In this document: piece by piece, positions 13,334 to 31,537 of the stretch | Layout of the letters: each line of letters begins with the position of its first letter | How positions within the stretch are numbered: position 1 is the first letter of the stretch | NCBI GenBank assembly: GCA_965197905.1 | Contig: CBDAOB010000005.1 | Span: 1,280,001-1,344,000, forward strand | Source: Candidatus Latescibacterota bacterium | GTDB taxonomy: Bacteria; Latescibacterota; UBA2968; UBA8231 | Direction of reading: 5' to 3' | DNA: 64,000 bases | The notes under the pieces: model-generated | The model's database searches: none | Told to the model about the DNA's origin: nothing | What the model saw: the letters and a program-made list of their open reading frames with translations, nothing else | Made by a program: the position numbers and the translations under genes

Positions 13334-13627
13334 TCAGGCTTCCTCGGCGGGCAGCCATTCCTCGATGGTTCGGCATACGGAACGGGCCTGGTTGGCGCTT
13401 GAGATCTCGAACTTACTGCGCTGCAGGTAGGTGCCCTCGCGCTTCTGGTATCTGCGGATCGATATCTTTTGGGGGCCGTAGTCACCCGATTTTCTGTCCA
13501 GATCCTGGTACAGAAACATGATGGTGGCCCACGAGCCTTTGCTCAGCACTTCCTTGTCCAGTTCCTTCCGCAGGACTTGACCATCCTCCTCGTACTGGAT
13601 CGTCAACTCCTCTACCGTTTCCGCCAT
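13334..13627 (-). CDS. Small conserved hypothetical protein
   Basis: 97-aa ORF with an RBS-like AAAGG and protein-like composition (KEVLSKGSWATIMFLYQ..IRRYQK). Confidence 0.7.
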   Translation of the reverse strand: MAETVEELTIQYEEDGQVLRKELDKEVLSKGSWATIMFLYQDLDRKSGDYGPQKISIRRYQKREGTYLQRSKFEISSANQARSVCRTIEEWLPAEEA

Positions 13628-19369: not shown

Positions 19370-19439
19370 CGGCGAATCAGTTTTTTGGGAGAATAGATGA
19401 ATGAGGCCGGCATTTCGAATCGATGCCGGTCGGAACTGG

Positions 19440-19976
19440 CTACCAGCGCGTCAAGTTGCCCATGATCTTGTCCAGATCAGTCTGCAGACCCTTCTTTTCC
19501 GTTTCCAGCTCGCGAATACGGTTTTCGCTTTCTTCGAGCGATCCGGAAAGATTCTTCATGGCGTCTTCCAGCTCAGCTGCTTTTTCAGCCAACTTAGCGC
19601 TCTGTTCCGTTGCCTGTGAGCGTTGCTTCTGGCGTTCGTCGAGCTCCTGGCGCAAGGTGGACAGCCGGATCTCCATATCGTGAATCGTTTTGTCAGCGTC
19701 CTCCTGGACCTTCTTGCGTTCCTGGTCCAGTTCCTGCTGGATGCGATTCTGTTCTTCCTGCAGTTTTCTTTCCTGTGCCTTCAATTCCTCGTAGACAGCC
19801 GAAAGTTTTTCCTCGACGGCCTCTCGCTCCTGTGCGCTAGTATGCACCTGTTTCTCCGCCTCTTGCTTGACGGCGACTTCGATGTCGAGCATTTGGTGCA
19901 AGCGTGCAATCTCATCACGTTGTCGGGTGAGTTCAGTTTTTAATCTACCGGCAGTTAGGAAGGCGAATATTCCCAT
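19440..19976 (-). CDS. Coiled-coil protein with a short hydrophobic N-terminus
   Basis: MGIFAFL followed by about 160 aa of E/Q/K/L-rich heptad sequence; AGGGA RBS. Confidence 0.7.
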   Translation of the reverse strand: MGIFAFLTAGRLKTELTRQRDEIARLHQMLDIEVAVKQEAEKQVHTSAQEREAVEEKLSAVYEELKAQERKLQEEQNRIQQELDQERKKVQEDADKTIHDMEIRLSTLRQELDERQKQRSQATEQSAKLAEKAAELEDAMKNLSGSLEESENRIRELETEKKGLQTDLDKIMGNLTRW

Positions 19977-20053
19977 TGAGTTTCCCTCTTACGCAGCTAA
20001 CCGCACATTTCGGGGGAGTCGGGGGGAGAACCGAAGAAAACTGAGCCGGCGAC

Positions 20054-21142
20054 CTAGGAGACCTTGCCGGCTTGGCGCCACTCGGAATCGGGCATGTCAG
20101 TAGCCAGCTTCAGCGCTCCAACGGCTCCGGCGTACACCGGGTCTTCCACCGTCGACACCTTACACGGACCAAACTCGCTCAGGTTCGAACGCACCTCTTC
20201 CGCAAGGGCGCGAATCTGACTGCCGCCTCCGGCGAGCAATATGTTCTGCCGCAGATCGTGTTGGTACTCCGGATCGAACGTAACGATCAGTTCCCGGGCG
20301 CTCTCGATCAGATCGGGCATGACACTTTCGCAAGCTTCCCTCACTTCCTCGGTTACGTCGTAGGTCTTCGGTTTTCCGTTGACCTAGAAATCGACGTAGA
20401 TCACTTCTTTCTGCGAGGAAACGAAAGCGTACTGTTCCTTGATGCGGCGCGCATTTTCCAGGGTGATGGGCGAATCCTTGATCTTCTCCTGAAGCAGCAT
20501 GTGCAGGCGCGAATCTACGAAGTTGCCGGCTTTGACCAACGTCCGTTGGTCTTCCTCGCTGGGGATCGTACCGTGCATGCGACAGAGATCTAAGGTGCCC
20601 GCCCCGATGTCGATAATCAGCGCGCTATTGAACAGATCCAAGCCATACGCGACAAGAAATGGCTCAGAGGCTATGAGCACATAATCAACCAGACCGCTTA
20701 CCGCGTCGGCCAACGCTTGCCGGTCCTCGGTGGAGGCGCGGGCCGGACATCCGATGACGACCCGAAGTTCCTGATTCGGCTGGCGTTCGGCTAATTCGAG
20801 TATGAAGGTGACCAGGTGGTTGATCGCCTCCGCATCCCGGTTCAAATCCTGATCCTCGGCCTCTTCCGGCGATGCGCGATATCTAAAAACACCATTCTCC
20901 AATGGCCAGATCATGTCGACGGCCATGCGGTTCTTCAGACATTCCTCGCCGATCACTACCCGTTTTCCGAGGAACTTGTAAGATATTAGGTCCTTCGGCC
21001 AACCGACGACGCTGCTGACTGTTCGTTTGATCTGTGTGTTTGTGGCGATAGAACTCTGCGATGTGCCCAGGTCTATGCCAATGCAGAGGATATCGGATTT
21101 GGAGGACTTATCCAAAGCTCCTTCCGCCTCGGCACTTGCCAT
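20054..21142 (-). pseudogene. MamK-like actin, full length (362 codons) but with an in-frame TAG at 20384-20386
   Basis: GIDLGTS, SVVGWPKD, VIGCPARAS, SEPFLVAYG, IDIGAGT and KAGNFVD, then DF*VNGKP..ACESVMPD, NILLAGGGS and GALKLA in the same frame. This motif order matches MamK as I recall it. Confidence 0.85.
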
Positions 21143-21198
21143 ATTCAAATGCTCCCCGAAAAATACGTCAAAATCATGTGTAAATCTCTATTTCGCAC

Positions 21199-21228
21199 AA
21201 TGTAAGAGCAATACTGGAGGACTGTCAA
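21199..21228 (-). promoter_or_regulatory. Sigma-70-type promoter for the MamK-like gene
   Basis: Minus strand reads TTGACA-N18-TACATT; GGGGAG RBS 9 nt before ATG 21142. Confidence 0.6.
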
Positions 21229-26951: not shown

Positions 26952-27203
26952 ATGAGCAGTCCAACAGATCTTTCCCAGTTGCAGAATATGGATGTGCGGG
27001 TGTCGGTGGAATGGGGGCGGACCCGCATAACGCTGGAAGAGGCGCGGACGCTTGGCCCCGAAGCGATCCTCAAGGTCGATAGCGAGGTGGACGATCCGGT
27101 GGAGGTGCGGGTCAACGGCAAGTTGATCGGGCGCGGCAAGATGGTGCTCGTGGGCGACAGTTACGGCGTACAGATGACTCAGTTCGTGGATGGCGGTACC
27201 TGA
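26952..27203 (+). CDS. fliN: FliN/SpoA family flagellar switch protein (short, orphan)
   Basis: VSVEWGRTRITL..DPVEVRVNGKLIGRGKMVLVGDSYGV. Confidence 0.8.
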   Translation: MSSPTDLSQLQNMDVRVSVEWGRTRITLEEARTLGPEAILKVDSEVDDPVEVRVNGKLIGRGKMVLVGDSYGVQMTQFVDGGT

Positions 27204-27296: not shown

Positions 27297-28940
<1,644 letters not shown>

Positions 28941-29237
28941 TTAACCTACGATGGCGAGAACATCTTCCTCGCGCATTATGAGGAACTCTTCACCTTCGAT
29001 CTTGACCTCGGTGCCAGAATACTTGCCGATAAGAACCTTGTCGCCTTTCTTCAGTTCGGGCGTAACGCGCGAGCCGCCATCCAGTTTTCCGGGACCGACG
29101 GCCACGACCTCGGCCTCCTGGGGTTTTTCTTTGGCGGTATCGGGAATGATAATGCCCCCAACCTTCTGCTCATCATCGTCATCTAGACGCTTGACCAGGA
29201 TGCGGTCCGCGAGTGGTTTGATCTTTGGTTTGGCCAT
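28941..29237 (-). CDS. groS: Co-chaperonin GroES
   Basis: [30 protein letters not shown] and KYSGTEV motifs; GAGGAG RBS before ATG 29237. Confidence 0.97.
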
Positions 29238-29297
29238 GGGATTGTCTCCTCGTGTGGGGTAAAAGAAACTCCTTACGATGGTGTAGCTACTCAGTTG

Positions 29298-29312
29298 GCA
29301 ATTCCCGTGCCA
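29298..29312 (-). promoter_or_regulatory. Sigma-54 promoter of groES-groEL
   Basis: Minus strand TGGCACGGGAATTGC matches TGGCACG-N4-TTGC exactly. Confidence 0.8.
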
Positions 29313-29330
29313 ATAGCAACAGAAAAAGAG

Positions 29331-29343
29331 TAAACCATTGATA
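29331..29343 (-). promoter_or_regulatory. IHF binding site
   Basis: Minus strand TATCAATGGTTTA matches WATCAANNNNTTR; it lies between the sigma-54 site and the upstream repeats. Confidence 0.65.
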
Positions 29344-29393
29344 AATAACATCTTAAGAGATTGTGCCCCGCTGCCGTGCGAATCCTTCAAGTG

Positions 29394-29524
29394 GCCAATA
29401 TTCCCAAAATGGGAATATTGGCGCAGGAAGTCCGCGCCGCGAAATTCATAGTCTATTAATTTTAATAGCTTTAAGATCATTTCCCGAATCGGGAATCTAT
29501 CTCCGGGCATTCTCAAAACGGGAA
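29394..29524. promoter_or_regulatory. Three TTC(C/T)C-N5-GGGAA palindromes, candidate enhancer sites
   Basis: Copies at 29401-29415 (inside a perfect 13-bp inverted repeat, 29394-29422), 29481-29495 and 29510-29524. Confidence 0.7.
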
Positions 29525-29661
29525 TCTGGTCCTCCCATTGGTGAAATGGAGACATTTTGCCGTCGGCCATAGGGATGGCTATCTTTTTGTCCGTCATTGG
29601 CAGATTGGTCTGAATTGTTCAAGGCCCTGCAACATCTCATTTCGATACAGGAAATCCCACA

Positions 29662-31537
29662 TTGACGTCTATCCAGGGTGAGCTGCGCGACCAGCTCGTA
29701 GGTTTGTTGGGCGACCGGATTGCCACCGGAGAAGTGTTGATCTCACCTTCCCACTTCCTCGCCGCCATCGTCGAGGATTACCAGGTGCTGACAGGAAGCT
29801 TCGTCTCGGAGGAGGTGAAGAGCGAGTTGTCATCTCTCCTTGGCGAGGTCAACAAATCTACTCCGGAATTGGTGCTCATACCCGGGATTGAGAACTGGAT
29901 CACCAAGTCGGTTTATGGCTTGATGCGCAAAAAGAGCTGGGGCGTAACCGAGGTGCGCGAGGGCGGGAATCACCTGGTGCGCGACTTCGTGAAAAGCGCC
30001 CAGGTGAAAGCGTTGCTCCAGGGTTTGAAGACTACTCCGAATCAGCTGAATGCTCGCCGCTGCCTTCACACCATAACCTACCAGATCGCCGGCAAGGAAG
30101 ATCCCCAGCAAAAACGCTCCCTGGCGCGCCTGGCACAGGCAAGAGCCAACGCCAAGACCGTTGTCCCCGCCGATGGAGGCGGCGCCCCGGTTGACCGCGC
30201 AGCCCAAAGTGAAGCGCGGTTGCAGGAGCTGCTTTCGGGGCCAGCCGAGGACCCGAGTGCGGAGGAGGTGGAGCATCGGCACGCGGAGCAGAAGAAGGCC
30301 CAGGCAAAGATTCGCAAAGAGCAGATGGACCATTTGATAGAACATCTGGACCAATATGTCGCCCAGGGCAAGATGACTGAAGAGGAAGCGGGGAAGCTCA
30401 AGAAGCTGAATCAGGTCGACACGGCCATGCAGAGTGGCAAGGTAGACAAAGAGAAGGGAAGCAAAATACGTAACAGTATCCTCTCCGGCACCGCACGTTA
30501 CGAGCTGGACAAGAAGGTCAAGGAAACCGTCGACTACGTAGTGCGTTACACACAGGTGTACGACGCGCTGGGGCGCATCGAACAAAAGTACGACGACGCA
30601 CTGCGGCTCCTGATCGAATTCAAGGAGGCGGCGAACGCCGCGGAGCGCACTCAAGAGGAATTCGGCGCGTTGGGCAAGAAGCTCATCGAAGACACCGCTT
30701 GCCTGCAGAAGGTCATCGGCCTTCTTGACAGACAGGACGGCGAGGTGCGCATGATCGCTGCGAACCTGCCTCCGTATAGCCACATCATGCGCAGAGATCA
30801 GGATCGCGTCTCCAACATGGTTATCGAAGAGAGTTTCGTCATCGAGCTGCGGGAGTCGGAACCCGGTGCGATCTCCGAGAAGCTGAGGGATCCGGACCGC
30901 AAGGTGCAAGTGCGAGCGGCGGCGGACATGTTGTGTATGGCAGGACTGATCAATCGCCTTATCAAACCTACGCCGATTCGCAAAGAGATTCGGCTTCTAA
31001 AGTTGAACCTCATCATTGAGGACTTCTTTCGTTCTTCCAACGACGTGAGTGAAGCGCGCTCGCGCGCGCAGCAGTTTCTAGAGACCCGCATTTTGAAGCT
31101 GTACCCCGACTTGACCGAGGAGGAAACCGCCGAAATGCAGCAGCTGGGCGCGGAGATGATCGAGTCGGTGGAGCAGACTATCGTGGCAGAGCGCGCCGCT
31201 GAAAAAGAGGCCGGCGCAAGTGCAGCCAAGGAAGGGGCCGCTTCCTCTGCGCCCGCCTCTGAAGAGGGAGGGGGTGAGCTCAGCGCAGACGAGGTGAAGA
31301 GCGGAGTGATGATAGGGAGGGTACTGATGCGTATGGGGGGTGGGCAGCGCGTTGCCAAGCGGTATGTGGTAAAAAATCGGGAACGTGCCTTTTAAGATCA
31401 TGCCCGACGATGACGATCCATCCAGGTTCGTGCTCGTCAAGAAAGATCCGGATAGCGGCGAGCTTCTACTCGTGCGCCGTCGCGGCGCCAAGCGGTATGT
31501 GGTAAAAAATCGGGAAGGGGTCTGGGAGCCGACCTAG
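29662..31537 (+). CDS. Large helical hypothetical protein; 3' end frameshifted by a local duplication (called ORF stops at 31395)
   Basis: 577-aa ORF. A shifted frame continues VPFKIMPDDDDPSRFVLVKKDPDSGELLLVRRRGAKRYVVKNREGVWEPT to TAG at 31535-31537. Confidence 0.65.
31354..31516 (+). repeat. Exact 30-bp direct repeat, copies at 31354-31383 and 31487-31516
   Basis: GCCAAGCGGTATGTGGTAAAAAATCGGGAA occurs twice, offset by 133 bp. Confidence 0.95.

Follow-up and report, generated by a model that had tools for sequence, protein, structure and literature searches.

A MamK-type actin and a linked coiled-coil protein outside magnetotaxis: a gene pair of Latescibacterota with a possible tie to flagellar motility

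Introduction

What does a MamK-type actin do in a bacterium in which no other magnetosome gene accompanies it? The question is raised by two adjoining genes in the window, by which we mean the whole stretch of 64,000 nucleotides of Latescibacterota DNA that was analysed. In Magnetospirillum, MamY ties MamK to the inner membrane; crescentin and CcfM are shape-related coiled coils, and ParM/ParR and Salactin are segregation-type actin systems. An earlier note, made from the sequence alone, read the pair as a filament with a membrane-associated adaptor that positions some cargo other than magnetosomes, or else as a dispersed part of a magnetosome system.

MamK relatives in non-magnetic bacteria, namely saltatorellin and BeeR, are already known, and what is new here is the flagellar link and the partner family. 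A literature search, with most subscription papers outside its reach, found no description of this actin clade, of the partner or of a flagellar link. An account of Latescibacteria, in its accessible part, notes flagella and BMCs and does not mention the actin (PMC4454575).

Organization of the gene pair

The actin gene occupies 20054..21142 of the minus strand, running over 362 codons from an ATG at 21142 to a TAG at 20054, and all seven motifs that the earlier note had quoted as following MamK are found in it. That description missed an in-frame TAG at 20384..20386 (minus strand), which stands in place of a conserved glutamine, Gln253, coded CAG or CAA in relatives; the gene is thus nonsense-broken in this strain. 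Upstream, the sigma70-type promoter-like site TTGACA-N18-TACATT, which had been claimed as the gene's own promoter, is located at 21199..21228 (minus strand) and agrees with the consensus at 10 of 12 positions. As three promoter-like sites were found against 1.7 in shuffled sequences, this site is weak taken alone, and a TTGACA...TAnnnT element is visible upstream of the actin gene in 9 of 13 printed upstream regions of relatives.

The partner gene, described earlier as a coiled-coil frame starting MGIFAFL, follows as stated after a 77-nt intergenic spacer (19977..20053, minus strand) that carries a purine-rich stretch ahead of the partner ATG and in which no terminator-like site was found. 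Its open reading frame is intact and encodes 178 amino acids at 19440..19976 (minus strand). A GC-rich hairpin right after the partner stop (19407..19429, minus strand), read from the sequence and folded, is a possible transcript end of the pair, although it has no adjacent U tract and was not called by a terminator scan.

The module occupies a fixed site, with an S8 protease gene on one side and a Gfo/Idh/MocA oxidoreductase gene on the other, and no flagellar genes lie next to it. The region upstream of the actin gene lacks the sigma28 motif that two flagellin genes have, and an upstream motif common to the module and the flagellar operons was sought and not found. Elsewhere in the window, genes at 29662-31395 (plus strand, 577 aa) and 13334-13627 (minus strand, 97 aa) match no Pfam or NCBIfam family; the 97-aa gene recurs in eight related loci.

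The actin is of the MamK type

In what follows, G000 is the genome carrying the window (91% complete) and G006 is its congener, which supplies the intact reference ortholog. On the NCBIfam MamK model NF040964 (cut-off 400), the actin scores 415.3 bits with the TAG read through as X and the G006 ortholog 417.2, on a scale where magnetosome MamKs score 426-523, one paralog 354 and members of a sister clade 355-408; its score with this model is also higher than with the models for MreB, BeeR and Salactin. With the MreB model it reaches 63 bits (cut-off 293), a separate mreB-like gene being present elsewhere in G000, and with the BeeR model NF053558 it reaches 204 bits (cut-off 530). The G006 ortholog matches PDB MamK at an E of 1.6e-87, and its AlphaFold model (pTM 0.87) finds a MamK filament, 5ljv, as its best Foldseek match (TM 0.86/0.96, rmsd 1.8 A); the predicted N-terminus of the actin has only 14 low-confidence residues. 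The actin therefore groups with MamK and not with MreB, as had been proposed.

All 76 aligned homologs share the ATP-site residues D24, G26, T27, P163, D180, G184 and G307, and the phosphate-1, SEP, phosphate-2 and adenosine motifs are all present in intact relatives. The features that distinguish Mad28 in the available part of its description (PMC10653835), a Ser for the Asp of phosphate-2 and loss of the EP motif, are not found, D180 and P163 being invariant throughout; this actin has the Asp and SEP motifs of MamK. It is a MamK-type actin, with intact ATP-site residues in its relatives. In 10 of the 76 homologs (P0041, P0099, P0103 and seven more), mostly of a KSB1-like branch, the SEP motif has Gln for Glu, which suggests that ATP hydrolysis in those homologs may be slow or absent. 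Eight other MamK-like actins (P0302-P0309) of 787-1194 aa are fused behind a long N-terminal part that looks both coiled-coil and proline-rich and is unrelated to the partner.

The nearest named records of the actin come from Candidatus Latescibacterota, and NCBI labels these proteins 'MamK family'; identity to the sampled magnetosome MamKs is 38-42%. Two quick trees, in which Omnitrophota, Nitrospirota, Desulfovibrio and Latescibacteria MamK, Mad28, BeeR and saltatorellin were not knowingly sampled, place it in a clade of its own with Latescibacterota, KSB1-like and Glassbacteria sequences (33 of 53 rows, SH-aLRT 92; 27 of 70 rows, SH-aLRT 86). This clade stands apart from the sampled magnetosome MamKs on stems of 0.78 and 0.98, with a basal polytomy and an unresolved root. 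Further members are broken in L073, L048, L056, L045 and L134 by frameshifts or internal deletion, some of which are possibly assembly errors.

The partner is a predicted continuous helix co-inherited with the actin

The partner is predicted to form one continuous helix over residues 2-177 (pLDDT 92), with heptad-like periodicity in its C-terminal half. Conservation is concentrated in a hydrophobic N-terminal head (residues 1-40), a segment at 100-130 and an amphipathic C-terminal end (KIMGNLTRW). The hydrophobic moment is 0.29 at the N-terminus versus 0.69 at the C-terminal end, which rules out a strongly amphipathic N-terminal helix, and no transmembrane segment was found. The earlier term 'membrane-associated' is weakly supported, given the missing transmembrane segment and the low moment of the hydrophobic N-terminus. 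The partner matches no Pfam or NCBIfam family over the cut-off, no ORF of 13 magnetosome loci and no Mam model. A search of 1.84 billion representatives gave only 58 matches, and many of the weaker are generic coiled coils. Judged by its sequence, it is an undescribed family.

Among 76 genomes of the family, 19 have the actin and the same 19 have the partner, the two genes being directly adjacent in 18 and the arrangement disrupted in one (G008); two genomes beyond these 19, G007 and G066, hold decayed remnants of both genes. In metagenomes we found 33 partner loci, and the actin lies directly in front in all 29 that have at least 200 upstream bases. The linkage in relatives that the proposal of a pair called for is therefore present. 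Compared with G006, a crude count puts dN/dS at 0.022 in the actin gene and at 0.041 in the partner gene. The partner is thus linked to and co-inherited with the actin, and strong purifying selection acted on both genes up to very recent times. Nine longer proteins looked at as candidate actin-partner fusions have N-terminal extensions unrelated to the partner, and a record joining LysM repeats to partner residues 21-178 (P0131) is single and was taken as a chimera.

The module is nested within flagellated genomes

Among 132 genomes of the class, 53 have flagellin and 31 the actin, which occurs in 31 of the 53 flagellin-positive and in 0 of the 79 flagellin-negative genomes; these genomes are kin and not independent, so that P values for the split overstate it. 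Counted by genus unit, the actin is present in 19/24 flagellin-positive and 0/12 flagellin-negative units. Within family f3, actin, FlhA and flagellin are found in the same 3 of 22 genomes, and in genus g18 each of the five genomes with FliG carries the module, a remnant of it or a piece of it at a contig end, while the five FliG-negative ones have none. Only three controls were profiled against flagellin: of the 39 family genomes without flagellin, 37 still carry the downstream neighbour and 36 the BMC shell genes, and the upstream neighbour persists in 11. All 20 module-negative loci that were checked have an empty module site, which in 14 of them is flanked by both neighbours. The pattern expected from this was also seen outside the phylum, where all five genomes carrying more distant clade members have flagellins, the base rate for this count being unknown.

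The converse does not hold. The module is missing from 22 of the 53 flagellin-positive genomes of the class, some of which have a cleanly empty site, and in other classes FlhA is found in 18 of 36 genomes and the actin in 0 of 36, so flagella do not need the module. Chemoreceptor arrays were rejected as the specific cargo since CheW does not track the module (present in only 17 of 31 actin genomes, and in 7 genomes without the actin), and BMCs likewise: 70 of the 76 genomes in the family carry BMC genes, and G013, where the pair is intact, lacks them. Gas vesicle genes were found in 0 of 5 genomes, where the control was also without a match anywhere.

Several features of the motility genes themselves were also seen. 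FliG is strongly multiplied and scattered: G000 has 8 FliG_C matches and G065 as many as 19, for the most part stand-alone full-length genes, and no fliG stands at the usual position next to fliF; G000 has about 10 flagellin-domain genes. A stand-alone FliN-like gene (FliMN_C, 82 aa) lies outside the flagellar clusters at 26952-27203 (plus strand) of the window and adjoins groEL; groEL/groES are present in at least two copies in G000 (window 27297-29597; L108), one of them directly behind a stand-alone fliG.

Decay of the module and of flagellar genes often goes together, as G007, G112 and G066 show, but flagellar damage is also seen beside an intact actin. G007 has a stop in flhA beside its remnant module, G112 has a split flhA together with a deleted actin segment, and G066 has remnants of both genes. 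G146 has no flhA and a split fliF, yet its actin is intact, and in G006 a 12.9-kb deletion running from fliR into fliF (G006:C1 near 2037165) has removed motor and export genes, yet its actin is intact too. The flagellum has been inactivated independently in these congeners, by that deletion in G006 and by frameshifts plus an inserted repeat element (L137, G000:C5:2478001-2498000) in G000.

Taking these distributions together, we give about an even chance to the reading that one Latescibacterota family has the pair from its ancestor as a cytoskeletal module of two genes, which is held at a fixed site, is unrelated to magnetosomes, serves the flagellated state and is lost with motility. Because the profiled controls number only three, a common change in lifestyle is still a genuine competitor. 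Under that alternative, to which we assign a smallish but serious probability, a MamK-type filament, together with a coiled coil similar to crescentin or CcfM, would shape or stiffen the cell, or the pair would serve some other need of free-living cells, and it would be lost along with flagella in host-associated or attached life. The flagellated relatives without the module and the retention of the actin in G006 after loss of its motor favour this alternative, as does the occurrence of the window stretch in a sponge metatranscriptome run. Saltatorellin, in the accessible part of its description, is proposed to drive shape change (10.1101/817700). Crescentin and intermediate-filament models give weak, generic scores to 3 and 4 of 24 members of the partner family, and the ESM Atlas returns unnamed clusters only (0.90 with low recognition); these coiled-coil scores, however, are under every cut-off and typical of any coiled coil. 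Also against this alternative, flagellin-negative genomes are not reduced, many being 5-7 Mb, and they keep the module's neighbours and the BMC genes; a separate MreB is present as well.

A different gene follows the actin in the sister clade

To one side of the family, a sister clade has a TPR gene in front of the actin and, behind it, a 204-aa gene with ParB_N and HTH_ParB domains. This arrangement is found in 11 loci, one of which (L051) lies outside the sister clade. The different gene behind the actin indicates that partners have been exchanged, and the ParB-type partner may be the older state. Across L038-L048, L051 and L056, the order is a TPR gene, a 160-aa low-complexity gene, the actin and a short ParB-like gene without a C-terminal extension; L051 has a ParA-like/response-regulator fusion close by.

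Other neighbourhoods were seen as well. Two loci of KSB1-like genomes (L052:4571-7212 and L059:2349-4478) contain a second clade member; behind it come a coiled coil of 71-73 aa and feoB, and in L052 also rubrerythrin. Clade members in L053, L054, L055, L069 and L073 adjoin NfeD/SPFH genes, which echoes the flotillin neighbour of the mamK of Thiomargarita, where a mamK homolog is reported in the accessible part of one study (10.1101/2022.04.11.487978).

The ParB-type loci raise the alternative of a segregation system, similar to ParM/ParR or Salactin, that moves DNA or DNA-attached cargo and in which the coiled coil has replaced a ParB-type adaptor. We regard this as improbable: the partner lacks a DNA-binding domain and is nearly neutral in charge (40 acidic versus 31 basic residues), an ortholog of the short ParB-like gene is missing from G000 (where the only match is a 30%-identical ParB-family gene), and clean loss in many lineages and nesting in flagellated genomes are not expected of chromosome partition. 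A plasmid partition system was rejected, as the module found no match in 72,556 plasmids.

The actin gene is broken in this strain

The TAG at codon 253 (YVDF*VNGKPK) leaves an open frame of 252 amino acids. The product ends before the adenosine motif, and the GGGS motif and the last three of the quoted motifs fall behind the stop, so that the gene as earlier described stands in its motifs and not in its integrity. Gln is found at this codon in 16 of 16 relatives with an alignment over the site. The TAG is present in a DNA contig (X1) that matches the whole stretch, has a depth of 7 and is possibly the source itself, and also in an RNA contig (X8) from another study, a sponge metagenome run, with 0 differences over 20338-20499. 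The RNA contigs reach only parts of the actin gene and are not evidence of transcription.

Could the allele nevertheless be functional, through an assembly error or through readthrough of the TAG as Gln or pyrrolysine? The possible identity of the DNA contig with the source and its depth of only 7 leave room for an error, and the frame is otherwise intact on either side, with dN/dS against G006 of 0.019 and 0.030 on the two sides of the TAG. An error, however, is opposed by the RNA contig of the other study, which spans the site without a difference. Recoding was rejected on several results: TAG is an ordinary stop in G000, terminating 1282 of 4165 long ORFs, the actin gene included; only 3 of 2992 Gln sites read TAG across 239 ORFs common to G000 and G006; RF1 is encoded; and PylS and a CUA tRNA were looked for in G000 and not found. 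We therefore consider a functional allele quite unlikely. Given that TAG is a normal stop, that the RNA contig agrees and that dN/dS is low, the actin in this strain is most likely a recent pseudogene that was conserved until very recently.

The flagellar genes of G000 are damaged as well: flhA is frameshifted, motA split and flgE interrupted, although some of these indels are possibly assembly errors. Flagellar dN/dS between G000 and G006 is 0.03-0.085, similar to that of the actin, which suggests that the flagellar loss is as recent as the actin loss. Enrichment of broken genes in the flagellar regions was considered and rejected: between G000 and G006, 15 of 102 and 16 of 93 genes are broken in flagellar blocks and 18 of 112 in a non-flagellar block (spurious ORFs included), so co-decay in G000 is not above background.

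Core magnetosome genes not found

The earlier statement that the window holds no other mam or mad genes extends to the whole genome, in which no mam genes were found. MamB was found in 0 of 132 class genomes (E 1e-45) and MamQ in 0 of 76 family genomes over the cut-off, with 10 weak matches; MamM is absent from G000. When 13 magnetosome loci were compared with G000 through their ORFs, among them MamI, M, N, Q, R, B, S and T of MV-1, the only matches were generic HtrA/TPR proteins, and the verdict on mamA, E, O and P comes solely from such weak matches. The core set of mamA, B, E, I, M, O, P and Q is thus not found in this 91% complete genome, and the proposal of a dispersed magnetosome system is largely refuted. 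That the module is a detached part or relic of such a system is very improbable, even though the actin passes the MamK cut-off, flagella are a feature of magnetotactic bacteria and metagenomic work has pointed to magnetotactic members of Latescibacteria (PMC12748827, accessible part), given the missing genes, the long stem of the actin clade and strong purifying selection without any mam gene.

Discussion

How might such a module serve flagellated cells? By analogy with MamK, the actin would form ATP-driven double filaments, and the partner would be a coiled-coil rod roughly 26 nm long, at 0.15 nm for each of 177 residues. Through its conserved ends this rod might anchor the filament at the inner membrane, in the way that MamY and Mad coiled coils act on MamK, or may instead tie filaments to a cargo. 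The filament-tether assembly would then help to place or align the motility apparatus, be it basal bodies, cell axis or polarity, as an accessory to swimming that is not essential. Once swimming was abandoned, both genes would decay and be deleted together; in this strain, the change from CAG to TAG in the actin would have come at about the same time as the breakage of flhA, motA and flgE. A filament with an adaptor for a non-magnetosome cargo, the other half of the earlier proposal, therefore stands as something that we infer, its binding and its cargo included. Two observations on MamK, each from the accessible part of its source, count in favour of this reading: MamK binds an MCP-like protein in AMB-1 (PMC7175107) and works with coiled-coil Mad proteins in RS-1 (PMC12748827).

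The closest relative by structure is MamK of Magnetospirillum magneticum AMB-1 (5LJV, 5LJW, 5JYG; NF040964), with 43-44% identity, the best structural match and the same ATP-site motifs. In contrast to it, our actin has an acidic insertion of about 12 residues near 88-100, belongs to a separate long-stem clade, has no magnetosome genes in its genome and a different, lineage-specific partner, and is broken in this strain. In Desulfovibrio magneticus RS-1, an actin filament of MamK or Mad28 likewise has coiled-coil partners, Mad20, 23, 25 and 26 (PMC12748827, accessible part), and the RS-1 Mad and Magnetospirillum MamY-MamJ systems may be the closest model, by analogy, for how the module works. 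Unlike the RS-1 system, however, it has no magnetosome cargo, and its partner matched neither the magnetosome loci nor the Mam models.

Two further relatives come from non-magnetotactic bacteria. Saltatorellin of Saltatorellota, in the available part of its description (10.1101/817700), forms filaments in E. coli and M. gryphiswaldense and occurs in genomes that also have flagella and MreB; it belongs to another phylum, and neither a partner gene nor a flagellar link is described in that part. BeeR of Verrucomicrobiota (8R2N; NF053558; PMC11929497) is a MamK-related actin whose function is not established; our actin is 27% identical to it, falls far below its model's cut-off and has a disordered N-terminus of 14 residues as against 30-50 in BeeR.

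More broadly, the MamK-type actins of Latescibacterota, KSB1 and kin could tentatively be seen as a dedicated cytoskeleton of the flagellar apparatus with exchangeable adaptors, a coiled-coil tether here and a ParB-like protein in the sister clade, in hosts with many FliG and flagellin paralogs. Motility might then have been the job of MamK before magnetosomes recruited it, a doubtful but possible history in which the flagellar tie would bear on the origin of the magnetosome cytoskeleton.

The pair is a real, undescribed variant of the theme of MamK plus coiled coil, outside magnetotaxis, broken here and with a testable tie to flagellar motility. As MamK is treated as a magnetosome marker and these proteins carry the 'MamK family' name, this clade can cause false calls of magnetotaxis. 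Nesting in flagellated genomes and clean joint deletion give the module a concrete, testable function, which saltatorellin and BeeR do not have established, and the window's own copy, most likely a recent pseudogene, would record that loss in progress.
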